In this document: in pieces, positions 2,255-64,000 of the stretch
How the letters are laid out: each line of letters opens with the position of its first letter
Position numbering within the stretch: position 1 is the stretch's first letter
NCBI GenBank assembly: GCA_964431805.1
Contig: CAYSKV010000001.1
Coordinates: forward strand, 61,698-125,697
Source: an uncultured Gammaproteobacteria bacterium
Lineage (GTDB): Bacteria; Patescibacteriota; Patescibacteriia; Patescibacteriales; GWC2-42-12
DNA length: 64,000 nucleotides
Direction: 5' to 3'
Notes under the pieces: generated by a model
Told to the model about the DNA's origin: nothing
Seen by the model: the letters and a program-made list of their open reading frames with translations, nothing else
Database searches by the model: none
Program-made: the position numbers and the translations under genes

Positions 2255-2962
2255 ATGCCGTATCTAAAATTTATATCCGACAAAAATTTAATTTCTGCCG
2301 TTGGAAAAGTAGTCAAAATAATAGAAATGACGGAACGTGAGGCGAGTAGTAATCTTCATAAAAATGTTATTGATCCTTTTTCAGCCTTGTTCCATGGCGT
2401 CACTCATTCAATAGCATACAAAGAATGGATAAAACAAGAAAAGGCCAGACAATCACAAAAAACAATGCAAAATGCCATAGGTGATTTTCATCAAGAAATA
2501 TTAGGTGCAATCCCTGGTTGGAAAAATCTCGGAGTTGGTGGAGGGTTGGATGTTGCAAACGATAAAATGAAAATTATTGCAGAAATAAAAAATAAATTTA
2601 ATACAACAAAAGGAAATCATAAGGTTGAAATATATAATGCCATAGAGTCAAAACTTAAATCAGAAAAATTTAATGGTTTTATTGGATATTATGTAGAAAT
2701 AATACCTCAGGCAAAAAGCATATACAACAAACCCTTTACCCCATCGGACAATAAGACCCACAAGAGAAAACCGAGCAAAAAAAATATCAGAGTAATTGAT
2801 GGTATAAGTTTTTATACTCTTGCAACCGGACGAAAATATGCCCTACAGGAACTATTTGAAGCGTTATCTCATATTTTAGTAGATGAATACAAATTTAAAT
2901 TAAGCAAAGAAGAAGCTAAAAAATATTTTGAATTATTTAAATTAGCCTTTTTAACTAAATAA
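2255..2962 (+). CDS. Putative type II restriction endonuclease (PD-(D/E)XK-like)
   Basis: 235-aa ORF directly upstream of a C5-methyltransferase. Candidate catalytic motif GLDV..(10 aa)..AEIKNK. Size and the NVIDPFSA region recall Eco47II-type enzymes from memory only (unverified). Confidence 0.55.
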   Translation: MPYLKFISDKNLISAVGKVVKIIEMTEREASSNLHKNVIDPFSALFHGVTHSIAYKEWIKQEKARQSQKTMQNAIGDFHQEILGAIPGWKNLGVGGGLDVANDKMKIIAEIKNKFNTTKGNHKVEIYNAIESKLKSEKFNGFIGYYVEIIPQAKSIYNKPFTPSDNKTHKRKPSKKNIRVIDGISFYTLATGRKYALQELFEALSHILVDEYKFKLSKEEAKKYFELFKLAFLTK

Positions 2963-2980
2963 CCATTGCCTAGGCAATGG
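2963..2980 (+). terminator. Perfect palindrome CCATTGCC-TA-GGCAATGG followed by TTATTT, between the R and M genes
   Basis: 8-bp GC-containing stem immediately after the stop codon, with a U-rich tail. Confidence 0.5.
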
Positions 2981-2985
2981 TTATT

Positions 2986-2994
2986 TGATATAAT
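2986..2994 (+). promoter_or_regulatory. Extended -10 promoter TGATATAAT for the methyltransferase gene
   Basis: TGnTATAAT match 29 nt upstream of ATG 3023. The same TGnTATAAT form recurs at other gene starts in this window. Confidence 0.5.
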
Positions 2995-2997
2995 TAT

Positions 2998-3016
2998 GAT
3001 AGATTATTAATCTATC
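2998..3016. promoter_or_regulatory. 19-bp perfect palindrome GATAGATTA-T-TAATCTATC (candidate operator)
   Basis: 9+1+9 perfect dyad lying between the -10 box and the start codon of the HTH-methyltransferase. Confidence 0.5.
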
Positions 3017-3022
3017 TTTTTT

Positions 3023-4276
3023 ATGAAAAAAAATCAATTTATAACCGCTGGAGAAGCCGCCCGTCGATTAGGTATTTCAATTGATACTATTAGAAGGTGG
3101 GACAAAAAAGGACTAATTAAATCTTTTAGAGATGAAAAAAACGATCGCATATTTAGTTTAGAAGAAATAAAAAGAATACAAAACAAAACTTACGGAGACA
3201 AAAAAAGTAAGTTTAAAATTTTAAAGAATAATAGAATGTCAAACTACACAGCGATCGAATTATTCGCTGGTGCGGGGGGCACTGCTTTAGGGATGGAAAA
3301 TGCAGGTATTGAGCATGTACTATTGAATGAGTATGACAAATATGCCTGCGAAACACTTCGGATTAATAAACCAAATTGGAATGTTGTCGAAAAAGATATA
3401 AGAGAACTAAAATTTTTTAATGGGCAAGCCGACATTGTTCAAGGAGGTTTTCCCTGCCAAACTTTTTCGCAAGCTGGTCGAAAAATGGGTTTTGAGGATA
3501 TACGAGGTACATTGTTTTTTGAGTTTGCGAGATGTGTTAAAGAAGTTAAGCCTAAAATTGCAATTGGAGAAAATGTCAAAGGATTGCTCAACCATGACAA
3601 TGGTAGAACAATTAAGACGATGGTGTCTGTTTTAGAAGAAATTGGATATCGAGTTAAATATAAAATTTTACGATCACAATATTTGGATGTTCCGCAAAAA
3701 AGAGAACGTCTTATAATTATTGGGGTTAGAAAAGATTTAAATATTCCTATTTCATTTCCAAAAGAAAAAGATTATATTATTCCTCTGCGCGAAGCATTCA
3801 GCAAATGTCCAAAATCTGAAGGCCAAAAATATCCAGAAAAAAAGAAAAAAATATTAGAATTAATTCCTCCTGGCGGATATTGGAGAGATCTTCCGGAAAA
3901 TCTTCAAAAAGAATACATGGGGGCAAGTTATTTCATGGGTGGCGGCAAAACTGGTATGGCAAGAAGATTGTCGTGGGACGAACCGTCTTTAACCTTGACT
4001 TGTAGCCCGGCTCAAAAACAAACTGAACGTTGTCATCCAAATGAAACACGTCCTTTGTCAGTGCGCGAATATGCACGAATTCAAACATTTCCAGATAGTT
4101 GGAAATTTTCAGGATCCGTTTCGCAGCAGTATAAACAAATAGGTAATGCTGTACCGGTAAACCTTGGATATCACATTGGCGACATGATAATTAAAATGCT
4201 TAACGGTGAAATTGAAGAAGAAAAAGATGAGGCGCTTATGTTTATTCAGCAAAAATTATTTGCTTTTGCTACGTAA
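3023..4276 (+). CDS. dcm: DNA (cytosine-5)-methyltransferase with N-terminal MerR/excisionase-type HTH domain
   Basis: C5-MTase motifs: I ELFAGAGG, IV GGFPCQTFS, VI GENVKGL, VIII QKRERLIIIG, X GNAVPV. The first ~70 aa carry ITAGEAARRLGISIDTIRRWDKKGLI, in the same frame with no intervening stop. Confidence 0.9.
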   Translation: MKKNQFITAGEAARRLGISIDTIRRWDKKGLIKSFRDEKNDRIFSLEEIKRIQNKTYGDKKSKFKILKNNRMSNYTAIELFAGAGGTALGMENAGIEHVLLNEYDKYACETLRINKPNWNVVEKDIRELKFFNGQADIVQGGFPCQTFSQAGRKMGFEDIRGTLFFEFARCVKEVKPKIAIGENVKGLLNHDNGRTIKTMVSVLEEIGYRVKYKILRSQYLDVPQKRERLIIIGVRKDLNIPISFPKEKDYIIPLREAFSKCPKSEGQKYPEKKKKILELIPPGGYWRDLPENLQKEYMGASYFMGGGKTGMARRLSWDEPSLTLTCSPAQKQTERCHPNETRPLSVREYARIQTFPDSWKFSGSVSQQYKQIGNAVPVNLGYHIGDMIIKMLNGEIEEEKDEALMFIQQKLFAFAT

Positions 4277-5615: not shown

Positions 5616-5645
5616 TTGAAAAAAACTCATAAGTTGTGTTATAAT
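5616..5645 (+). promoter_or_regulatory. Promoter TTGAAA-18 nt-TATAAT with TG extension
   Basis: TTGAAA 5616-5621, TGTTATAAT 5637-5645, upstream of the S8 protease gene. Confidence 0.55.
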
Positions 5646-5658
5646 AAAGATGTTATTT

Positions 5659-5759
5659 ACCCCGTTAAATAGCATCTTTATTCATAAATGGGGTAAGTTT
5701 TGCATTTGTATTTTTTTGTAAATTATTTATGATAAATTTTTTGTTTAGATTTAACGGGG
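5659..5759 (+). promoter_or_regulatory. Leader hairpin: ACCCCGTTAAAT (5659-5670) pairs with ATTTAACGGGG (5749-5759), enclosing the start codon at 5729
   Basis: 11-bp perfect complementarity. The 5' arm sits 13 nt after the -10 box. The same motif pair occurs at 55245-55345 and 59572-59629. Confidence 0.55.
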
Positions 5760-8056
5760 CGAGAAAGAAAACGACATCTTTTTTTAATATTTTTTTAATT
5801 GGAATAATTACGTTCCTAAGTTTTTTTATTTTTACTAATAGTAAGGCTTTTAGCGATACTAATAATGATTTTGCTTGCCCAGTTAAATCACAATTAGATA
5901 TTGGGGAGCGTAGTGTATTTAACAGGGTCGCCGATGAAATATTAGTAAAATTTAAAAATTCATCAAATCCGATAACTATAAAAATCGCTCAAGCGGGGGA
6001 TTTAAATGAGTTTTTAAATTACTATAATAATTTATCGGAAGTAGATTACGCCGAACCAAATTACATTTACAAAGCTTCTATAATTCCGTCTGATACGCTT
6101 TTTAATAATCAATGGTATTTACAAAAAATTAAAGCTGTTGAAGCATGGGATAATACAAGAGAAAGTTCTAATATTGTTATTGCTATTTTAGATTCAGGCG
6201 TGCAAATAAATCACCCCGATCTCGCTAGTAATATTTGGGTGAATAAAAAAGAGGTCGCTAATAATGGCATTGATGATGATAGAAATGGTTTTATTGATGA
6301 CGTTAATGGTTGGGATTTTGTTAATAATGTGCCTGACCCGGCGCCAAAATTTAAAACTGGATTTACTGAAGATGGAATTTTACATGGCACTATTATCGCC
6401 GGTATTGCGGCGGCTTCTGGCAATAACGCGGCTGGCATCGCTGGTATAACTTGGAAAGCGAAAATTATGCCGCTTAAAGTTTTAGATGATAAAGGCGATG
6501 GCAGCGCTTCAAAGGTTATAAAAGCCATTGATTACGCCATTGCTAATGGCGCCAATATTATTAATTTAAGTTTTGTTGGTTTTGGTTATAGTAAAGGTTT
6601 AGACGACGCGGTTAAACGCGCTTATGACGCTGGTTTAATCGTAGTAGCCGCCGGAGGCAACGAAGTCGGCCAGGGCGATGGTTATTATCTAGATGAAACT
6701 CCAATGTATCCAGCTTGCTTAGACGGCGCTAGTGGCGAAAATAGAGTAATCGGCGTAGCCGCAACCGATACCATGGATCAAAAAGCGACTTTTTCCAGTT
6801 TTGGCATTAAATGCATTGATATTGCCGCGCCAGGAGTTAGCGTTTTTAGCACAGTAGTTTATTCGCCGGATAATTATATAGGCGATCAACCATTTAATAA
6901 ATATTATGATGGTTATTGGTCTGGCACATCCGTCGCCGTGCCTATGGTAAGCGGCGCTTTAGCGTTAATCGAAGGCGCTAATCCAGCTTTAAATCGAGAA
7001 GAAATTTTAAAAGCCTTATTAGATAATGCTGATAATATTAGTCGAGTAAATCCAAATTATTTAGGTAAGCTTGGCAAAGGCAGATTAAATGTGGCTTCGT
7101 CGATTAATTACGCTAAAAGCATATTAAATAGTAAAATTGAAAAATTATTAATCGGTCCGAAAAGTGGCATGGCGAGTTTAGTAAAAATTACTGATCAAGA
7201 CGGAAAAAAGGATAACGAATTTTATGCTTATGGCGCTAGCTTTAAGGGCGGGGTTAATTTTTCTTCCGGAGATATAAATGGCGACGGCCAAGATGAAATT
7301 ATTACTGCGGCTGGTTTAGGCGGCGGACCGCACATTAGAATTTTTGACACTAAAGGAAAATTAGTGAGCCAGTTTTTTGCCTTTAGCAACACTTTCCGCG
7401 GCGGCGTGAATATTGCCAGCGCCGATATAAACAATGACGGTAAAGATGAAATTATCGCGGCTCAAGCTTCGGCAGGCAATTCAGAAATAAAAATTTTTAA
7501 TAATAAAGGGGGATTTTTAGGTTCATTTTACGCCTATGATAAATTTAAAGGCGGTATAAATATAGCTGCCGGCGATATTAATGGCGACGGGGAAGACGAA
7601 ATTATTACAGGTTTATCTGCTGGAAAAATTCCTGAAATAAAAATTTTTAATTCTAGCGGAGCTTTACGCGGTCAATTTTTGGCTTACGTTAAAACTTTTA
7701 CTGGCGGCGTAAGGGTAGCCGTAGCTAATGTTAGAAATTCTTCCGGTAGCCATAAATCAGATATTATTACGGCTCCGGAAAAAGGCGGCGGTCCGCATAT
7801 AAAAGTTTTTGATAGCAAAGGAAATTTATTTTCTCAATTTTTTGCTTTTAGCAGTACTTTTCGCGGTGGAGTTAATTTAGCTAAAGCCGACGTTGATAAT
7901 GACGGTTTTGACGAAATAATAACCGGCGCCGGTTCGGGAGGCGCGCCGCATGTCCGTGTTTTTAAAGCTAGCGGAAAACTTACTGGTTCATTTTACGCTT
8001 ATGAAGATAATTTTAGCGGAGGCGTTAGTGTTGGTAGCATAAAAATTAATAAATAA
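5729..8056 (+). CDS. Secreted subtilisin-like (S8) serine protease with C-terminal FG-GAP/VCBS-type repeats
   Basis: Catalytic contexts AILDSGV (Asp), HGTIIAG (His), GTSVAVPMVSG (Ser). N-terminal hydrophobic anchor. 6-7 repeats of GGVNxxxGDINGDGxDEIIT in the last ~300 aa. Confidence 0.9.
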   Translation: MINFLFRFNGARKKTTSFFNIFLIGIITFLSFFIFTNSKAFSDTNNDFACPVKSQLDIGERSVFNRVADEILVKFKNSSNPITIKIAQAGDLNEFLNYYNNLSEVDYAEPNYIYKASIIPSDTLFNNQWYLQKIKAVEAWDNTRESSNIVIAILDSGVQINHPDLASNIWVNKKEVANNGIDDDRNGFIDDVNGWDFVNNVPDPAPKFKTGFTEDGILHGTIIAGIAAASGNNAAGIAGITWKAKIMPLKVLDDKGDGSASKVIKAIDYAIANGANIINLSFVGFGYSKGLDDAVKRAYDAGLIVVAAGGNEVGQGDGYYLDETPMYPACLDGASGENRVIGVAATDTMDQKATFSSFGIKCIDIAAPGVSVFSTVVYSPDNYIGDQPFNKYYDGYWSGTSVAVPMVSGALALIEGANPALNREEILKALLDNADNISRVNPNYLGKLGKGRLNVASSINYAKSILNSKIEKLLIGPKSGMASLVKITDQDGKKDNEFYAYGASFKGGVNFSSGDINGDGQDEIITAAGLGGGPHIRIFDTKGKLVSQFFAFSNTFRGGVNIASADINNDGKDEIIAAQASAGNSEIKIFNNKGGFLGSFYAYDKFKGGINIAAGDINGDGEDEIITGLSAGKIPEIKIFNSSGALRGQFLAYVKTFTGGVRVAVANVRNSSGSHKSDIITAPEKGGGPHIKVFDSKGNLFSQFFAFSSTFRGGVNLAKADVDNDGFDEIITGAGSGGAPHVRVFKASGKLTGSFYAYEDNFSGGVSVGSIKINK

Positions 8057-10351: not shown

Positions 10352-10485
10352 ACCTTTAAAAACTTTTTTAGAAAAAGTTTTCCCCTAAAGGGATAAATAA
10401 TATTTTCAAAAATATAAGGTATTAAGTAAAAATTTCATAGCGAGCAAAGCTCTACGGCTATAAAATTTTTACTTAATTATGATAA
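10352..10485 (+). repeat. Two-hairpin intergenic module, copy C (with extra CCCT-AA-AGGG mini-hairpin)
   Basis: Hairpin 1 as in copy A. Hairpin 2 at ~10419-10478 has an altered but still complementary stem (TTAAGTAAAAATTT / AAATTTTTACTTAA) and loop AGCGAGCAAAGCTCTACGGCT. Confidence 0.9.
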
Positions 10486-22056: not shown

Positions 22057-22203
22057 AGCCTTTGAAAACTTTTTCAAAAAAAGTTTTCAATACTTTCCCC
22101 GCCTAAGCGGGATAAACAAAAAATATAACGTATCAAATTAAAATTTAATGGCCGTAGAGTTCTACTCGCTATTAAATTTTAATTTGATTATAATAAATAT
22201 TAT
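22057..22203 (+). repeat. Two-hairpin intergenic module, copy D (loop of hairpin 2 inverted; extra CCCGC-CTAA-GCGGG mini-hairpin)
   Basis: Hairpin 1: TTGAAAACTTTTT / AAAAAGTTTTCAA. The hairpin 2 (22130-22189) loop ATGGCCGTAGAGTTCTACTCGCTAT is the exact reverse complement of the copy E loop. Confidence 0.9.
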
Positions 22204-31828: not shown

Positions 31829-31955
31829 AAAGCTTTAAAGACTTTTTCAAAAAAAGTTTTTAATATTTTCAAAAATATAACGTATCAATTTAAAATTTAA
31901 TAGCGAGTAGAACTCTACGGCCATTAAATTTTAAATTGATACAATAAAGATAATT
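31829..31955 (+). repeat. Two-hairpin intergenic module, copy E
   Basis: Hairpin 1: TTAAAGACTTTTT / AAAAAGTTTTTAA. Hairpin 2 (31882-31942) has a perfect 20-bp stem GTATCAATTTAAAATTTAAT and loop AGCGAGTAGAACTCTACGGCC. Confidence 0.9.
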
Positions 31956-54022: not shown

Positions 54023-55270
54023 TTACGGCAAATACTCTAATGGATTAACCGGAATGCCGTTTAAACGAACTTCAAAGTGCAAATGAGGCCCGGTTGTGAG
54101 AGAACCAGCTCCGTTTGTGCCCGGCATACCACCTGAAAGGCCGATAGTTTGCCCTTGGACGACATATTCGTCTGGTTGTACATATATTTTAGATACATGG
54201 CCGTAAACCGTGGCCAAACCGTCGCCGTGGACTATCATAATATAGCTATAACCTTTACCAGCATTTTTAGCTATAGCGACATAGCCCGAAGCCGCGGCTC
54301 TTAAAGTACTGCCTTGAGCCGCTCTAATATCAATGGCCGGATGTTCAAAAATATAACGATAAGGATAGTCGGGATCATGAAAAGTCGCCATGACCATATT
54401 TTTTGTTACCGGCCAAATAAAACCAGCGTCATTAAATTCTAACTTTTCTCCAGAAAGTTTTGATAATTTAGCTCTCATGGCCCTCTCTAAGCTTACAATA
54501 TTAGACTCGGCTTGCTGTTGTTCTTGTTTAGCTAATTTTAATAATCTTTGATACTCTCTTTCCGAAGATCTCGTCTGATCTAAAAGATATGATTTATTTT
54601 CCTGCTCTGAAGCTAAACCAACTTTTTTATTTTCAAGATCTACTTTTAGCCCGGATAACTCCCTTTTCTTTTCAGTTAAACTTTTTTGCTGATCTTCTAA
54701 ATCTTTTTTATATTGTTTTATAGTTTCAAGGCTAGAAGCTATTTCTTTATTTATATCTTCTAAATATTTAACTTGGCTGACAAAATCATTTAGGGTGCCA
54801 TTAATCAGTAATATTTCTAAAGTAGATTTATTGTCTTGCTCTTGCATTAATCTAAGGACTGAGGAAATATGCTCTTTTTGTTTTAAAATTTGCTCATCCT
54901 TAGTTTTTATTTCAAGATTGACTTTATCTATTTCTAAATTAGTTCGATCAATTTCAATTTGCGCGCTTTCAATATCTAAAGCGGCTTTAGCTAAACGATT
55001 TTCCAAAATAGCTAATTGATTATTTAAACTGGCTTTTTCACTCTGCTTTTGCTTAATCAAACCCTCATAAACAGCTTGCTGTTCTTGTATCTTCTTTATT
55101 CTGTCTTGCTGAGCTTGAATATCTTGATTTATCTGCTTAATCTCATCATTATTATCAATCACAACCTGCCCATAAGAAAAATTAGACGCATTTAAAAATA
55201 GGCCTAAAAATAATATAGGTATGATTAACTTAATAATTTTCTTTACCCCATTAAATTTTATATTTTCCAT
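54023..55270 (-). CDS. M23-family peptidoglycan endopeptidase with N-terminal coiled coil
   Basis: C-terminal HGDGLATVYGH..GPHLHFEVRLNGIPVNP. A long Q/E/K-rich coiled coil and a signal anchor. Alternative start at 55294. Confidence 0.88.
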   Translation of the reverse strand: MENIKFNGVKKIIKLIIPILFLGLFLNASNFSYGQVVIDNNDEIKQINQDIQAQQDRIKKIQEQQAVYEGLIKQKQSEKASLNNQLAILENRLAKAALDIESAQIEIDRTNLEIDKVNLEIKTKDEQILKQKEHISSVLRLMQEQDNKSTLEILLINGTLNDFVSQVKYLEDINKEIASSLETIKQYKKDLEDQQKSLTEKKRELSGLKVDLENKKVGLASEQENKSYLLDQTRSSEREYQRLLKLAKQEQQQAESNIVSLERAMRAKLSKLSGEKLEFNDAGFIWPVTKNMVMATFHDPDYPYRYIFEHPAIDIRAAQGSTLRAAASGYVAIAKNAGKGYSYIMIVHGDGLATVYGHVSKIYVQPDEYVVQGQTIGLSGGMPGTNGAGSLTTGPHLHFEVRLNGIPVNPLEYLP

Positions 55271-55364
55271 AATTTTAAACCCGCTAAATAACATATGTGG
55301 ACTATTACTATTTTAACTAATTAAATTAGTAATTATTTAACGGGGTGAATAATATTATTATAAC
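55245..55364 (-). promoter_or_regulatory. TGTTATAAT promoter plus leader hairpin ACCCCGTTAAAT / ATTTAATGGGGT enclosing the M23 start codon
   Basis: On the minus strand the -10 box is at 55356-55364, the 5' arm at 55334-55345, and the 3' arm at 55245-55256 inside codons KFNGV. One G:U pair; 77-nt loop. Confidence 0.5.
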
Positions 55365-55379
55365 ATTTTTTATACAATT

Positions 55380-59571: not shown

Positions 59572-59629
59572 ACCCCGTTAAATAGTGTTTAGCGCTAATT
59601 TTGTTAAAAACAAAATTATTTAACAGGGG
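59572..59629 (-). promoter_or_regulatory. Leader hairpin ACCCCGTTAAATA / TATTTAACAGGGG with inner 9-bp hairpin, upstream of the GT26-Nudix gene
   Basis: Arms at 59572-59584 and 59617-59629. Inner hairpin AATTTTGTT-AAA-AACAAAATT at 59597-59617. Putative -10 TATTAT (minus strand) at 59638-59643. Confidence 0.5.
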
Positions 59630-60515: not shown

Positions 60516-60548
60516 AGTTCAAAGTTAAAAGTATAAAGTTATAAAGTT
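60516..60548. repeat. Left arm of an imperfect ~33-bp inverted repeat flanking the four-helix-bundle gene
   Basis: AGTTCAAAGTTAAAAGTATAAAGTTATAAAGTT compared with the reverse complement of 60884-60920, AGTTGAAAGTTAAAAAGTTCATAAAGTTGAAAGTTAT. Built from AAAGTT units. Confidence 0.6.
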
Positions 60549-60883
60549 TTTATTAACCCAGAAATCAATCTTGAAATTTCTACCGTTAAATTATAATCTA
60601 TTTTAAAATTGTCTTCCGAAATATATTTTAATTTAACTGCTAAATATAATATTGATCTTACTTCCCCGCACGAACCTTTAGCGATATAAAGAAAATTTAC
60701 AAATTCTTTATTAGTTCTTCTTTCAAACCCTTCAGCAATATTATTCATTATAGAAACAGTAGCTCTTTGAATTTGATCTCTAAAACCAAAATCTCTGCAA
60801 TCTTTAAATTCTTTATAAATATTTATTGTTAATTCTCCTGCCTTCTTCCAAGCTATTATATCTTCAAATTTTTCTATTTTCAT
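60539..60883 (-). CDS. Four-helix-bundle protein of the 23S rRNA-IVS / Avd family
   Basis: 114 aa. FEDIIAWKKAGELTINIY..FRDQIQRATVSIMNNIAEGFER..FLYIAKGSCGEVRS is the family signature as I remember it. Confidence 0.8.
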   Translation of the reverse strand: MKIEKFEDIIAWKKAGELTINIYKEFKDCRDFGFRDQIQRATVSIMNNIAEGFERRTNKEFVNFLYIAKGSCGEVRSILYLAVKLKYISEDNFKIDYNLTVEISRLISGLIKTL

Positions 60884-60925: not shown

Positions 60926-63900
60926 TTATTTCGCGCACCTAAAACCAATATTAGTTGATTGTTCGCTTGGCGAATGAGATAAATCAAGACCGTAAATTCC
61001 GGTCGAGCCGCGAACAAAAGCTTTTAAACCCGATGTTGAGCCAACATAAATTTTTCCTATATTATTATCTACGTCAGTTAAATAATAATCCGGCGCTATA
61101 TCTAAACCTTTATAATCGGATACATCGCTATATTCAAACCAATTATCTGCTAGCGGCGTTACCGGCAACCCAGCCACGGTTACATTTTTATTAGTCCACT
61201 CACCTACCTCACCCACTAAATTGTTAATTAAGTTATCATTGTTTAATTTGTAAGATATGGAAGTGGTGGCGAGTTGCATGCCAGCAATATTGGTATCGCT
61301 ATCATTGTCAGGATTTTGCAAAATATTTTCAGCGATAGTTAACCATTCATTTTCACCAATTAAGTGATAACCCGTGCCTAGAGTTTGGCAAGCGATTTGA
61401 GCTTCGCCCTGAGAGATATTAGTTTTGATTTGGTCTAATTCATCTTTCATTAAATCTGCTTGGACGCAGAAACCAGGCAAGGTGCCATATTTAGCTGAGC
61501 CAGGCACCCAGACAAAACCGTCTTCGCAATAACCCTCGAAAGCTCCGGCCACAACTTTGCCTTCAACGCCTAAATCAGCCATGGTTTCATCAACCGCTGA
61601 GTCTAGGGCGTTAGAGCAATAACCGCCGGCGCAGAGCATAATACGACCGTCAACTAACATTGAGCCTGCGACTTTAACTTCACCGCTTTGAGCTATATTC
61701 ATAATAGAGACGCCGTTAGCTTGAAAATCTGCGATATCGCCTGAACCTGATTGATTAACTATGAATGCGGTTTTAGTTGAGGAAGCGGTTATTTCGGTTA
61801 GTTCAACAATCTTAACTTCTGGCTCTTGGCCTGGTTCTGAGACTGAATCTTTACCGATTATGATGCTGCCGTTTTCATCAAACGACATTATATTCTCACC
61901 ATTCTGGTTTTGTAAAAATAGAGCTTGTGGAGTAATACCGCTGGCGGCTTCGGTAAAGCGGAAATTGTTGGCAAAAATTAAATCACCGACGTAGGAGTTA
62001 GTGGCGTGCAGAGTGCCTAAAACATCTAAATTACTGGCGATGGTTGAAGTACCGGTTCCGCCGACTTCGAGGAGGCCTGAGATATAGGCTGAATTATATT
62101 TATCGCCAGCGAGTAGATAGACCGGGGTGCTTGAACCAACCGTCAGAAGAGCTTGAGGAGAAGTTGTGCCGATGCCGACGTTGCCGCCTGCTTGAAAGGT
62201 GGTAACAACATCAGTAATATCAACATTATTATTATCATCCGCATTATCATTAAGAATATACATATCGCCTCGACCCCGAGTATTATCAGTTCGTTTAAAT
62301 GCAATTCCAGCCTTTGAATAATTAGCGCCTCCTCCCGTACCAAGATAACCCAACATTAAACCAGTCCATTGATTTTGCGTAATGTCTCCACCAATATGAG
62401 CCGCAAAAGAGTTGCCTGAAGTTGCCACAGTCAATTTATTTAATGGGGTCGTAATTCCGATGCCGACGTTAGTATTTTTTACTGTCAAAGTATCAGTAAA
62501 AGTGTTAGTCCCGGTTGGCGTAGCCAATGTTATTCTGGCTGATTGATAATTATTACTATCAAAAGTAGAATAGATGCGACCGCTATTATAAATTGTTCCT
62601 GGCCCGTTTGAAAGTTCACCCATAAAAACTATATCTTCTTGGGTAGATGCAGATCCTGATTTTTGCAAAGTTAAAAGGTTTTGCGCATTTGCCGTTCCAA
62701 TGCCTACATTACCATTTGCCAACACAGTCATTAAAGTTGAAGTTGATGTACCAGCCGTTGTTGAAGCTATAGTGAATAGAGGCGTGTTAACTGCTGTTGA
62801 TACAGAATTAGAAATAGATAACATAGAATAAGGCGAAGTCGTACCAACGCCCAATCTACCAGCTATAGCTGTATTAGGAATTGCCGAGTCATCAATAGTC
62901 AAAGCTGTACCCATTGTAGTTCTTAAATTTATTCCGGTCCAACCAAATAAATTTAAACCCGTCCCATTAGGACTGCTATTATTTATTTCTGCAAATGTCC
63001 CCATATCTATTTTATTGGCTGTAATAGTGCTTATAGATAATCCGCCTGTCATATGAACAGTGCCATCCCAAGTCATATACATAGATGCATTATTGCCAAA
63101 TGAATTGTCAAATCTAAAAATATCTTGACCGGCATTACCTGTTGGCGTGGTAACATAAAATTTAGCCGTAGGATTGGCAGCTCCAATTCCCACATTCCCA
63201 TTATTCGTTACCATTAAATATGTTGATGTCGCCACGCCGGCGGTTGAAGAAGCAATTATAAATAATGGAGTAGACCCGCCCAAAGTATTTTCTATTGATA
63301 ATTTTGCGTAAGGAGAAGAGGTGCCAATACCGACGTTGCCGTTAGTTAAAATAGAAATTCTTTCATTACCAGCGCCAGAAGCAGAGTCAAAGATGGATAA
63401 TCTTCCGTCATCAGAATTTTTGATAGACCAGGTTGAAGTGCCGATGTTTAGCGTACCGAACCAACCTTCGTTCCAACGATAAGTAGAAGTGCCGATGTTA
63501 TAGGTTAAATTAGCGCTTGGTAGAATATCTCCAGAAACTAATAATCCAGAACTAGTAATTGTTCCGGTAGCGGTTAGATTACCGGCAATATAGGCATCGC
63601 CGATTACAGATAGTTTAGTAAATGGTGAAGTTGTGCCGATGCCGACGTTGCCGCCTGCTTGAAAGGTGGTAACAACATCAGTAATATCAACATTATTATT
63701 ATCATCCGCATTATCATTAAGAATATACATATCGCCTCGACCCCGAGTATTATCAGTTCGTTTAAATGCAATTCCAGCCTTTGAATAATTAGCGCCTCCT
63801 CCCGTACCAAGATAACCCAACATTAAACCAGTCCATTGATTTTGCGTAATGTCTCCACCAATATGAGCCGCAAAAGAGTTGCCTGAAGTTGCCACAGTCA

Positions 63901-64000
63901 ATTTATTTAATGGGGTCGTAATTCCGATGCCGACGTTAGTATTTTTTACTGTCAAAGTATCAGTAAAAGTGTTAGTCCCGGTTGGCGTAGCCAATGTTAT
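60926..64000 (-). CDS. Giant repeat-rich surface protein (tail-fibre-like GNVGIGTxSP repeats) with C-terminal C-type-lectin/FGE-sulfatase-like domain; 5' end outside window
   Basis: The frame is open to the window edge, so the TTG start in the ORF track is an artefact. Recurrent NVGIGTTSPxxKLxV units. The C-terminal ~200 aa carry FVWVPG, GYHLIGENEW, VGEWTN and GFRCAK followed by the stop. Confidence 0.85.
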   Translation of the reverse strand: MTLATPTGTNTFTDTLTVKNTNVGIGITTPLNKLTVATSGNSFAAHIGGDITQNQWTGLMLGYLGTGGGANYSKAGIAFKRTDNTRGRGDMYILNDNADDNNNVDITDVVTTFQAGGNVGIGTTSPFTKLSVIGDAYIAGNLTATGTITSSGLLVSGDILPSANLTYNIGTSTYRWNEGWFGTLNIGTSTWSIKNSDDGRLSIFDSASGAGNERISILTNGNVGIGTSSPYAKLSIENTLGGSTPLFIIASSTAGVATSTYLMVTNNGNVGIGAANPTAKFYVTTPTGNAGQDIFRFDNSFGNNASMYMTWDGTVHMTGGLSISTITANKIDMGTFAEINNSSPNGTGLNLFGWTGINLRTTMGTALTIDDSAIPNTAIAGRLGVGTTSPYSMLSISNSVSTAVNTPLFTIASTTAGTSTSTLMTVLANGNVGIGTANAQNLLTLQKSGSASTQEDIVFMGELSNGPGTIYNSGRIYSTFDSNNYQSARITLATPTGTNTFTDTLTVKNTNVGIGITTPLNKLTVATSGNSFAAHIGGDITQNQWTGLMLGYLGTGGGANYSKAGIAFKRTDNTRGRGDMYILNDNADDNNNVDITDVVTTFQAGGNVGIGTTSPQALLTVGSSTPVYLLAGDKYNSAYISGLLEVGGTGTSTIASNLDVLGTLHATNSYVGDLIFANNFRFTEAASGITPQALFLQNQNGENIMSFDENGSIIIGKDSVSEPGQEPEVKIVELTEITASSTKTAFIVNQSGSGDIADFQANGVSIMNIAQSGEVKVAGSMLVDGRIMLCAGGYCSNALDSAVDETMADLGVEGKVVAGAFEGYCEDGFVWVPGSAKYGTLPGFCVQADLMKDELDQIKTNISQGEAQIACQTLGTGYHLIGENEWLTIAENILQNPDNDSDTNIAGMQLATTSISYKLNNDNLINNLVGEVGEWTNKNVTVAGLPVTPLADNWFEYSDVSDYKGLDIAPDYYLTDVDNNIGKIYVGSTSGLKAFVRGSTGIYGLDLSHSPSEQSTNIGFRCAK
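62160..62533. repeat. Perfect direct repeat, copy 1 (inside the giant gene)
   Basis: Identical base for base, as far as I compared, to 63627-64000. The offset of 1467 bp (489 codons) is in frame. Confidence 0.9.
63627..64000. repeat. Perfect direct repeat, copy 2 (truncated by the window edge)
   Basis: See 62160-62533. Identity continues to the last base of the window. Confidence 0.9.

Follow-up and report, generated by a model that had tools for sequence, protein, structure and literature searches.

The stretch of DNA analysed here, referred to below as the window, is 64,000 nucleotides of contig CAYSKV010000001.1 (assembly GCA_964431805.1), and the feature at issue is a hairpin-forming element of 100 bp that covers the beginning of a gene for an S8 protease. 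A promoter with an extended -10 box, TGTTATAAT (5637-5645, forward strand), stands before this gene. The 12-mer ACCCCGTTAAAT (5659-5670) starts 13 nt past the box, and the complement of the arm that it contains follows after exactly 78 nt, inside codons 7-11 (RFNGA), with ATG 5729 enclosed between the two arms. A first-pass annotation of the window had placed the box, the 12-mer and the enclosing complement just as they are found here (Table 1), as well as a GGGGT at 5690-5694, within the S8 interior, that it offered as another partner for the C-run, and it had read the whole as a leader hairpin recurring at the 5′ end of envelope-enzyme transcripts. The positions hold, but a dedicated envelope-enzyme leader is contradicted by what lies elsewhere: the same arms, with unrelated interiors, stand at more than 150 loci beside every sort of housekeeping gene. 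The S8 “leader hairpin” is, very probably, one copy of a dispersed, small, palindromic mobile DNA element that forms a hairpin.

The S8 Leader and Its Surroundings

The full-length S8 copy (5660-5759) is set out in Table 1, together with the other copies discussed in this work. Its 5′ arm starts about 8 nt downstream of the predicted transcription start, and, as first described, both the S8 and the M23 transcript do have the arms in their 5′ part, with a good extended -10 promoter upstream. In the frame of the gene the 5′ arm reads CCC CGT TAA; because of this TAA the S8 open reading frame (ORF) cannot start further upstream, and the start is the ATG inside the element. The leader element is common to the window and the comparison loci L035 and L066, with both arms and the position of the ATG conserved (alignment A1).

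The 5′ arm is also the center of a quasi-palindrome, the left half of which is host sequence and occurs, as ATAAGGATGCTAT, at the empty site of locus L160 described in the next section. Just upstream of the arm the host DNA reads ATAAAGATGtTAT, which the opening ~13 nt of the S8 interior (ATAgCATCTTTAT) repeat in inverted form, and a third copy, ACATCTTT, is found at 5774-5781. The inverted host copy suggests either a fold-back copying step during insertion or selection for a 5′ hairpin.

Table 1. Positions of the S8 leader features, of the other copies in the window, and of the tRNA-bearing copies at comparison loci (for the latter, the locus precedes the coordinates)
Feature	Position	Strand	Remarks
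Host promoter of the S8 gene (TTGAAA-18 nt-TATAAT + TG extension)	5616-5645	+	11/12 consensus matches plus TG; outside the element
Quasi-palindrome, 38 nt, centered on the 5′ arm	5644-5681	+	host ATAAAGATGtTAT as left half; its inverted copy ATAgCATCTTTAT opens the cargo
4-nt 5′ flank or “tag”, TTTA	5656-5659	+	matches YTYR, the family consensus ahead of CCCC
5′ arm (terminal inverted repeat), CCCCGTTAAAT	5660-5670	+	sequence; identical in L035 and L066
Interior (“cargo”), 78 nt	5671-5748	+	present 5′ untranslated region and codons 1-6; unrelated to the interior of the M23 copy
Degenerate inner 3′-arm-like ATAAATGGGG/TAAG	5684-5697	+	within the S8 interior
Present S8 start codon, ATG	5729-5731	+	inside the element; position kept in L035 and L066
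3′ arm, ATTTAACGGGG	5749-5759	+	perfect complement of the 5′ arm; codons 7-11 (R-F-N-G-A)
Short copy in the S8 coding sequence, 54 nt, 18 codons (tag CTTG + 50-nt hairpin CCCAGTTAAAT...ATTTAACAGGG)	5873-5926	+	in-frame insertion; degenerate match at 5878-5927
100-bp element at the M23 peptidase gene	55246-55345	-	arms 55345-55335 and 55256-55246; holds the working ATG 55270
Host extended -10 box of the M23 gene, TGTTATAAT	55357-55365	-	sequence; same box 6 nt before the ATG in element-free L161
57-nt copy (CCCCTGTTAAAT-32 nt-ATTTAACGGGG)	59573-59629	-	98-nt spacer before the GT26(WecG)-Nudix gene, ATG 59550
tRNA-bearing copy, Val(TAC)	L023 2583-2689
tRNA-bearing copy, Val(TAC)	L132 3776-3871
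tRNA-bearing copy, Val(TAC)	L076 4531-4634
tRNA-bearing copy, Val(TAC)	L052 206-310
tRNA-bearing copy, Thr	L062 914-1016
tRNA-bearing copy, Thr	L012 867-970
tRNA-bearing copy, Thr	L109 5502-5669

Empty and Filled Sites

The S8 orthologue at L160 (P0121, 68% identity) is element-free, and its protein begins M-RKKTASFFNIF. The DNA at this site reads CTGTGTTATAAT-AAGGATGCTAT-ATG AGA AAA AAA ACA GCA TCT TTT TTT, with the same TGTGTTATAAT promoter and the same codons from the second one on; since this promoter runs straight into the ATG and the shared codons, the element of the window sits between the -10 box and codon 2. The original S8 ATG is gone in the window. On this comparison of sites the S8-leader element is shown to be inserted DNA, a copy that in the lineage of the window entered the interval from the extended -10 box to codon 2. 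The insertion removed the old ATG of a gene that was previously leaderless or nearly so, and the element now supplies the 5′ untranslated region (UTR), the start codon and the first ten codons.

The M23 peptidase gene gives a similar picture. Among 120 orthologues (66-94% identity), 118 start with MKKIIKL and are free of the element, and the start MENIKFNG-VKKIIKL is found in the window and two others only. The M23 leaders of L161 and L162 are empty and read TGTTATAAT-GACACT-ATG AAG AGA, a leaderless-type arrangement; L161 comes from CAZHZE01, the same genome as L066, which does hold the S8-leader copy. In the element-free orthologues of both genes, at L160 20-45 and L161 ~575-603, TGTTATAAT stands 6-11 nt before the ATG, so that their mRNAs should be leaderless or near-leaderless, and both long insertions of the window fall exactly in this interval between promoter and start. 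Judged in the same way, the M23 gene is shown to carry the same kind of insertion, one that arose independently. The M23 orthologue of L129 keeps the arms and does not have the upstream ATG at 55294. Given this absence and the conservation of ATG 55270, the working M23 start in the window is ATG 55270, and the start of the longest ORF (ATG 55294) is probably wrong.

The same M23 site can hold different members of the family. At L163 and L164, which represent a sister lineage with a 94% identical M23 protein, the site (~560-660) has the same inserted left flank, ATTATTCA, but the arms are those of a different member, CCCTGTTAGAA/TTCTAACAGGG; three of their pairs have undergone compensated changes, and the interior is another one and shorter. 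A different member at the same site and flank points to turnover, replacement or conversion in place.

There is, in addition, a fourth and degenerate copy in the window, inside the S8 coding sequence, that the first-pass annotation had not listed. This short copy, which encodes ...CPVKSQLDIGERSVFNR..., is missing from L035 and L066, where the empty site reads GATTTT^GTCGC (alignment A2), and the CTTG tag belongs to the inserted DNA at this clean 54-nt insertion. Its interior is ~75% identical (blastn-short) to that of a short copy in an unrelated metagenome-assembled genome (MAG), L041, and the encoded peptides are nearly the same (PVKSQLDIGERSVFN vs PVKSQSEIGTRSVFN). Polymorphism of presence and absence at orthologous sites is seen, in all, at the S8 leader, the M23 leader, the S8 coding sequence and the gene for LeuRS. 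As to the conservation of the arms as a pair in orthologous leaders, to which the first-pass annotation had attached its proposal, the pair is kept in the close relatives L035, L066 and L129, but it is missing from the S8 leader of L160, the M23 leaders of L161 and L162, and the 118 M23 orthologues mentioned above.

Inverted repeats around a start codon also bring to mind an inverton, in which the arms would be recombination sites and the flipping of the 78-bp segment would switch surface enzymes on and off. In favor of this, the genes with identical inverted repeats around their start codon encode secreted or surface proteins, each arm with its flank makes a quasi-palindrome around CCCCGT, the GTTAAAT box of the arms resembles XerD/IntI binding motifs, and a flipped S8 segment would put an in-frame ATG beside the 3′ arm. 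However, the filled sites are found in one orientation only, for S8 in three genomes and for M23 in the window, L001-L003 and L129. No recombinase is present in the window, 78 bp is very short for inversion, the short copies with loops of 7-20 nt could not invert, and flipped copies inside LeuRS would be lethal. An inverton is, on these grounds, exceedingly improbable.

Recurrence and Pairing of the Arms

Within the window there are 11 matches to the arm 11-mer when up to one mismatch is allowed, where 2.5 would be expected, and 0 of 100 shuffles reached this number. The paired-arm pattern gives 3 strand-matches against 0.00 expected from the shuffles; these represent two loci, as the perfectly palindromic S8 pair counts on both strands. 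The earlier impression of a recurrence beyond chance was thus correct. It was correct also in giving the M23 copy the same arm pair with a G:U change, the 3′ arm being ATTTAATGGGG and forming one G.U pair with its partner, although the loop of this copy is 78 nt and not 77 nt. The arm pair noted upstream of the GT26-Nudix gene is present in a shorter form of 57 nt, which, when read with the 11-nt CCCTGTTAAAT arm, has a 34-nt loop and one U.G pair. The S8 and M23 interiors are unrelated to each other, while the S8 arms are perfect and the M23 arms have this single G.U. Minimum-free-energy structures of the RNA bring the arms together in the S8, M23 and GT26-Nudix copies; the folding z-scores are modest (-1.9, -1.9 and -3.1, respectively, the last with a fold of -18.4 kcal/mol).

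The family as a whole is defined by the 11-bp terminal inverted repeats CCCCGTTAAAT / ATTTAACGGGG, and the arms base-pair. The covariation of the arms across copies, which upholds the hairpin of the first description, includes the pairs CCCCGTTAGAT with ATCTAACGGGG, CCCTGTTAAAT with ATTTAACAGGG, CCCTGTGAAAT with ATTTCACAGGG, and CCCCGTGTAAT with ATTACACGGGG. A set of 99 variant hairpins, picked irrespective of pairing, has 33 double changes with Watson-Crick compensation, whereas 2000 shuffles average 10.3 and never exceed 23; kinship among the copies inflates the observed count somewhat. The covarying positions are 4, 7 and 9, and CCC/GGG and TTAAAT are nearly invariant.

Outside the arms the consensus is R-Y-T-Y-R before CCCC and Y-R-A-R-Y after GGGG. 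The two flanks are statistically independent of each other, including the -1/+1 bases, and so lie outside the helix; a pairing of the outer flanks was considered and rejected on the independence of these bases. The inverted repeats do reach ~15 bp in some families (TTCA...TGAA). The total length clusters at 94-101 nt though 77-107 nt was allowed by the search described below. The interior takes up ~75 nt in the long forms and 7-35 nt in the short ones and is unrelated between families; short, tandem and nested forms are common. Direct repeats of 4 bp flank 20 of 118 copies, compared with ~4 expected, and none is present at the clean 54-nt insertion or at most copies.

The sequence of the arms suggests one more relation, to the attC sites of integrons or to cassettes bounded by them. 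Both canonical boxes, RYYYAAC (as ATTTAAC) and GTTRRRY (as GTTAAAT), are present in the arms, structure is kept better than sequence, and a total length of 87-107 bp is within the attC range. The order of the boxes, however, is reversed on both strands, the 5′ arm having GTTAAAT and the 3′ arm ATTTAAC; there are neither L boxes nor extrahelical bases, and the copies are dispersed singly and not arrayed beside an integrase. An identity with attC was rejected because the defining order of the R boxes (R'' RYYYAAC 5′, R' GTTRRRY 3′) is not kept, and the probability of an integron-type origin is next to negligible.

Distribution across Genomes

Searching one genome per GTDB species with the pattern CCCCGTTAAAT-N55-85-ATTTAAYGGGG (total length 77-107 nt) gave at least 119 loci with the arm pair at a gap of 55-85 nt, and a scan of metagenomes for G.U variants gave 37 further loci. 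Among the matches listed, the phylum labels include Patescibacteria, Thermodesulfobacteriota/Deltaproteobacteria, Bacteroidales, Zixibacteria, WOR-3, Cloacimonadota, Omnitrophota and others, and the GC content runs from 27% to 56%. The copies are mostly intergenic, often between co-directional genes or just ahead of a start codon. Their neighbors are varied: NDK, LeuRS, MraY-type GT4, histidine kinases, response regulators, EF-G, HlyD, ABC ATPases, type IV secretion system (T4SS) pilin and tRNAs. All-against-all clustering of the flanking ORFs gave generic families only, with no shared neighboring gene, and genes for S23-IVS and PDDEXK_3 proteins were not enriched near the copies. Near-identical interiors recur at unrelated loci within single genomes, namely MAG021 (L005, L029, L089 and L105), JAUXIU01 (5 copies), JBHIER01 (4 copies) and CAVTQE01 (6 copies of a ~330-nt composite repeat).

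It should be mentioned that the NCBI organism names of several TPA_asm “binchicken” MAG records (L066, L054, L161 and others) are inconsistent with their content. L066 is labelled “uncultured Gammaproteobacteria”, yet it has 33% GC and is 90% identical to the Patescibacteria-like window; the taxon labels of the hits need caution.

Rfam scans of the window and 18 loci at the gathering threshold returned tRNAs and one group I intron only, with the elements unmatched, in keeping with the first-pass remark that the motif is no known riboswitch or leader. No copies were found among 2.9 million viral contigs, which gives no support to a phage origin. In the open-access literature the arm strings turned up in unrelated primers only, and papers on tRNA introns, on palindromic elements and on nested tRNAs in Patescibacteria contained nothing matching. 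The family is apparently undescribed, and we liken it to repetitive extragenic palindromic (REP) sequences, MITEs (miniature transposable elements with inverted repeats) and Rickettsia palindromic elements (RPEs). What seems new is that a stem invariant across phyla goes together with a preferred length of ~95-100 nt, arbitrary cargo that includes tRNA genes, and insertion at leaderless starts.

These findings bear directly on the original idea of a cis-regulatory leader or riboswitch dedicated to a regulon of envelope enzymes. That idea drew on the three copies at the 5′ ends of the S8, M23 and GT26-Nudix genes, and the absence of the motif from Rfam agrees with it. However, about one-third of the window genes are envelope-related, so that three copies beside such genes are not significant. 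There is no conserved structured core, the interiors of S8, M23 and more than 100 other copies being unrelated, and most orthologous leaders do not have the motif. The same arms are found at tRNAs, LeuRS, NDK, response regulators, T4SS genes and others, and the copies that sit in frame inside ORFs, or in multiple numbers within a genome, also contradict an envelope-specific leader. We regard such a leader as very unlikely.

Two arrangements of the arms came up in the course of this survey. In Thermodesulfobacteriota the arm pair is at the center of a ~330-nt multi-copy, highly structured repeat (L008, L016, L024, L026, L045, L057, L086, L094, L110, L114 and L135) that has an outer pairing CGTAAAAAGTC / GACTTTTTACG and optional small palindromic inserts and is not in Rfam. 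In Bacteroidota MAGs (L013, L038, L060, L100, L108 and L112) there are arrays of identical 38-nt hairpins (CCCCGTTAAAT-16 nt-ATTTAACGGGG) with spacers of 14-24 nt of a GGAACAA-type low complexity, and these arrays adjoin long tandem repeats (GAACGAAGGGACTTAAGA-like).

Copies inside Protein and tRNA Genes

Copies inside long ORFs are always in stop-free frames, the 5′ arm being read as PVK or PLN and the 3′ arm as FNG or LTG; the third frame of the 5′ arm contains TAA. The LeuRS of L105 has a 33-aa insertion, HPVK...FNGV, in the linker before the anticodon-binding domain that is missing in its 11 closest homologues, and in-frame, stop-free copies are present also in a GT2-like protein and in the S8 pro-region. 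No gene split by the element was found among the loci examined.

At no fewer than seven of the fetched loci the arms enclose a complete and normal tRNA gene with a short leader and trailer, and these tRNA-bearing units sit in the anticodon loop of a second tRNA-like gene. The Val(TAC) cases (L023, L052, L076 and L132) have the arrangement stem-TTTA TTCA/element/CA(A/G)G(T/C)-stem, and the Thr cases (L012, L062 and L109) have ...TTTG CCTG/element/TAAA-T-AGG. The outer tRNA of L132 is orthologous to the inner tRNA of L023, and vice versa, which means that the Val paralogues nest in either order; L076 and L035, the latter closely related to the window organism, share one MAG. At four independent junctions (TTTG/CTTG, TTTG/CCTG, ATCG/CTCG and TTTA/TTCA) the tag by the 5′ arm resembles the preceding 4 nt of the target, and this likeness hints at a microhomology- or guide-type step in the insertion. 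We infer that the outer tRNA genes are disrupted targets and the inner ones functional replacements, which is, to us, the most puzzling observation of this work. Separately, the outer tRNA in L012 bears further hairpin insertions in its D- and T-arms.

Interrupted anticodon loops in otherwise good tRNA cloverleaves could also mean an intervening sequence at the level of RNA, that is, a hairpin “intron” cut from tRNAs and mRNAs by an endonuclease and a ligase. The archaeal type of tRNA intron has 3-nt bulges with a 4-bp helix between them at both junctions, and its excision restores a 7-nt anticodon loop. The spacing at the present loci, with 8 nt and 5 nt between the anticodon stem and the arms, misfits such a bulge-helix-bulge, and the removal of the element gives no 7-nt anticodon loop: the Val cases are left with 2 extra nt, and the Thr cases are short of 3 stem nt. 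ARAGORN, run on 81 deletion variants per locus, restored no sensible anticodon loop. Splicing would not need the stop-free, in-frame state that every copy in an ORF shows, and no split genes were found. An RNA intron is highly improbable.

The tRNA copies, taken with the rest, lead to a wider proposal, for which the chances are somewhat less than even. The arms would mark a previously unrecognized, cross-phylum superfamily of “tagged hairpin” mobile cassettes, in which a conserved trans-acting enzyme reads one 11-bp stem and the cargo of ~75 nt is arbitrary, up to a complete tRNA gene; the tRNA copies would enter the anticodon loop of a paralogous tRNA gene, and leaderless genes would gain leaders and new start codons. 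If this is true, the nested Val(TAC) paralogues (L023 vs L132) would be a self-complementing invasion of an essential gene.

Proposed Movement of the Element and Its Possible Effect on Transcripts

The hairpin is probably what a genome-encoded enzyme acting in trans recognizes in order to move the element, and the identity of the stem across phyla would then reflect the specificity of this enzyme. The best guess for the mobilization is a single-stranded-DNA chemistry (Y1/HUH, REP-RAYT or IS200/IS605-like), since the 4-nt tag is one-sided, target duplications are not regular, and the loops of other hairpins are preferred sites. Pairing, a one-sided tag, insertion in the loops of palindromes, multi-copy dispersal and insertion polymorphism are classic features of mobile elements that work through hairpin recognition on single-stranded DNA.

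Several observations weigh against a mobile element, and they are best given together. No transposase, recombinase or RAYT-like gene is found in the window, nor recurrently in ~1 Mb of flanks, so that the mobilizing enzyme is purely one that we infer; nor does any arm pair enclose a transposase gene in the ~1 Mb of fetched DNA. The target-site duplications are irregular, with 4-bp direct repeats (TTTA, TAAA, CCCG) in some families only, and many copies have flanks with neither direct nor inverted relations. The intact arms around unrelated S8 and M23 interiors suggest a selection of the arms in place, or a replacement of the interior, and not the simple decay of selfish copies. On the mRNA strand, each of the two imperfect window copies (M23 and GT26) has its wobble as G.U, which fits a role in RNA, although the wider sample is without a clear strand bias. 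Finally, an exact 11-bp stem across phyla is unusual for REP or MITE families.

In the transcripts the stem of 11-12 bp would close a 78-nt loop that holds the start codon, and it may have an effect on translation or stability like that of the Correia elements in Neisseria. One can go further and consider that the stem, whatever its origin, has been exapted as an RNA element of the S8 and M23 mRNAs, serving as a 5′-terminal protective clamp, as an RNase III site or to tune initiation. Such a role would fit arms that begin ~8 nt past the predicted transcription start and enclose ATG 5729 and ATG 55270, that have stayed intact despite their unrelated interiors, and that show conservation in three genomes for S8 and at least two for M23, next to codons that vary. 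It would fit as well the G.U wobble pairs on the sense strand in the window and the Shine-Dalgarno-like sequence in just 5 of the 58 window genes, and the Correia elements of Neisseria behave in this very manner. Set against these points are folding z-scores of just -1.9, and the orthologous genes that work element-free with leaderless or short-leader mRNAs. The strand of the G.U pairs was first counted as 13:5 in favor of sense, but in a larger, purpose-built set from metagenomes the ratio is ~14:10 after the removal of duplicates, and thus it does not track the direction of transcription across loci. There is no clear evidence for a selection of pairing in the transcript, and the G.U bias neither supports nor excludes selection at the RNA level. 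On balance, exaptation is a possible but unlikely account of the motif.

With a mobile element as the source of the hairpin, any regulatory effect of the RNA would possibly be a by-product and not the reason why the motif recurs. Given the near-absence of Shine-Dalgarno sequences and the formerly leaderless state of the two genes, the insertion probably changes the mode of initiation and perhaps the stability of the mRNA.

Other Features of the Window

The window contains a second family of hairpins, intergenic and upstream of genes, at 10421-10477, 22132-22188, 31882-31942 and 60585-60637. The arms are AT-rich, 19-23 nt long (e.g., ATCAAATTAAAATTTAATGGC / GCTATTAAATTTTAATTTGAT) and always exactly 15 nt apart, and they are unrelated to the CCCCGTTAAAT family. 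A restriction-modification pair at 2255-4276 comprises an Eco47II-type endonuclease (PF09553) and, after it, a C5 cytosine methylase whose N-terminus has a MerR-type HTH. On the reverse strand, a 1022-aa ORF without a Pfam hit (60926-63994) has a long internal direct repeat with identical stretches of at least 60 nt placed 1467 nt apart (e.g., 62438 and 63905), and it is followed by a gene of the 23S-rRNA-IVS-protein family at 60539-60883.

Implications

For the window itself, the recurrent 12-mer is no riboswitch-like leader for envelope enzymes, and a tempting false lead has been removed. Two gene starts are redefined, that of S8 as the ATG at 5729, inside the insertion, and that of M23 as the ATG at 55270 and not 55294. 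Provided that the family is new to the literature, it offers a rare example of a mobile, non-coding element whose recognition stem is identical across distant and mostly uncultivated phyla, and it points to a widespread mobilization enzyme. The filled and empty sites in close relatives are natural experiments in how very small genomes cope with insertions into essential genes, tRNAs and leaderless promoters. There is a practical side as well: in metagenome-assembled genomes these elements will mislead gene callers, through wrong starts and extra peptide segments, and tRNA finders, through nested or disrupted tRNAs.

Comparison with Known Systems

The resemblance to attC sites lies in the pairing of the RYYYAAC and GTTRRRY boxes, in a conserved structure around a varying interior and in a similar range of sizes; it stops at the reversed order of the boxes and at the lack of L boxes, arrays and integrase. 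With MITEs the element shares terminal inverted repeats, here of 11 bp, and the presence/absence polymorphism at orthologous sites, but unlike MITEs derived from insertion sequences it has no parent with the same ends and a transposase in the ~1 Mb of fetched DNA.

REP sequences and REPINs are short palindromic repeats mobilized by RAYT (Y1) transposases, and some of them are “tagged” (Di Nocera et al. 2013, PMC3733652; Bertels & Rainey 2011, PMC3116915). Like these, the present elements are short, hairpin-forming, multi-copy and non-autonomous; most of them lie within operons between two genes, or close outside an ORF, and occasional ones within genes, they have an unpaired 4-nt motif at one end only, they come as singlets and in tandem and nested forms, and the arms of the palindromic unit pair (compensation at positions 4, 7 and 9). 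There are also differences. The tag is YTYR (CTTG, CCTG, TTCA, TTTA) where that of REPs is GTAG or CGTC; the stem is conserved across phyla while the tag varies, which is the opposite of what is seen in REPs; the units are larger (50-107 nt), with the preference for ~95-100 nt noted above; and no RAYT gene is seen in the window or among the recurrent neighbors of the copies.

A further comparison is with RPEs. These elements of ~100 bp, which Ogata and colleagues reportedly described in 2000, are said to lie in frame in protein genes and also in RNA genes, and to be tolerated apparently as extra peptide segments. The family studied here likewise consists of palindromic repeats of ~100 bp that are found, in frame and stop-free, in conserved proteins (the LeuRS linker, the GT2-like protein, the S8 pro-region) and in RNA genes. 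The sequences, however, are unrelated, and RPEs belong to one genus, whereas our family is spread over many phyla and can carry whole tRNA genes.

The Correia elements of Neisseria (CREE/NEMIS) are MITE-like, ~100-150 bp long and co-transcribed with the genes whose starts they lie next to, and their hairpins in 5′ UTRs change mRNA processing and expression. They have 26-bp terminal inverted repeats, a TA target duplication and IHF sites, and they occur in one genus only; none of these traits, nor the single-genus range, is seen in the family described here. Both have terminal inverted repeats and come to lie beside gene starts, and Correia elements are the best model for the effect that the window copies may have on RNA.

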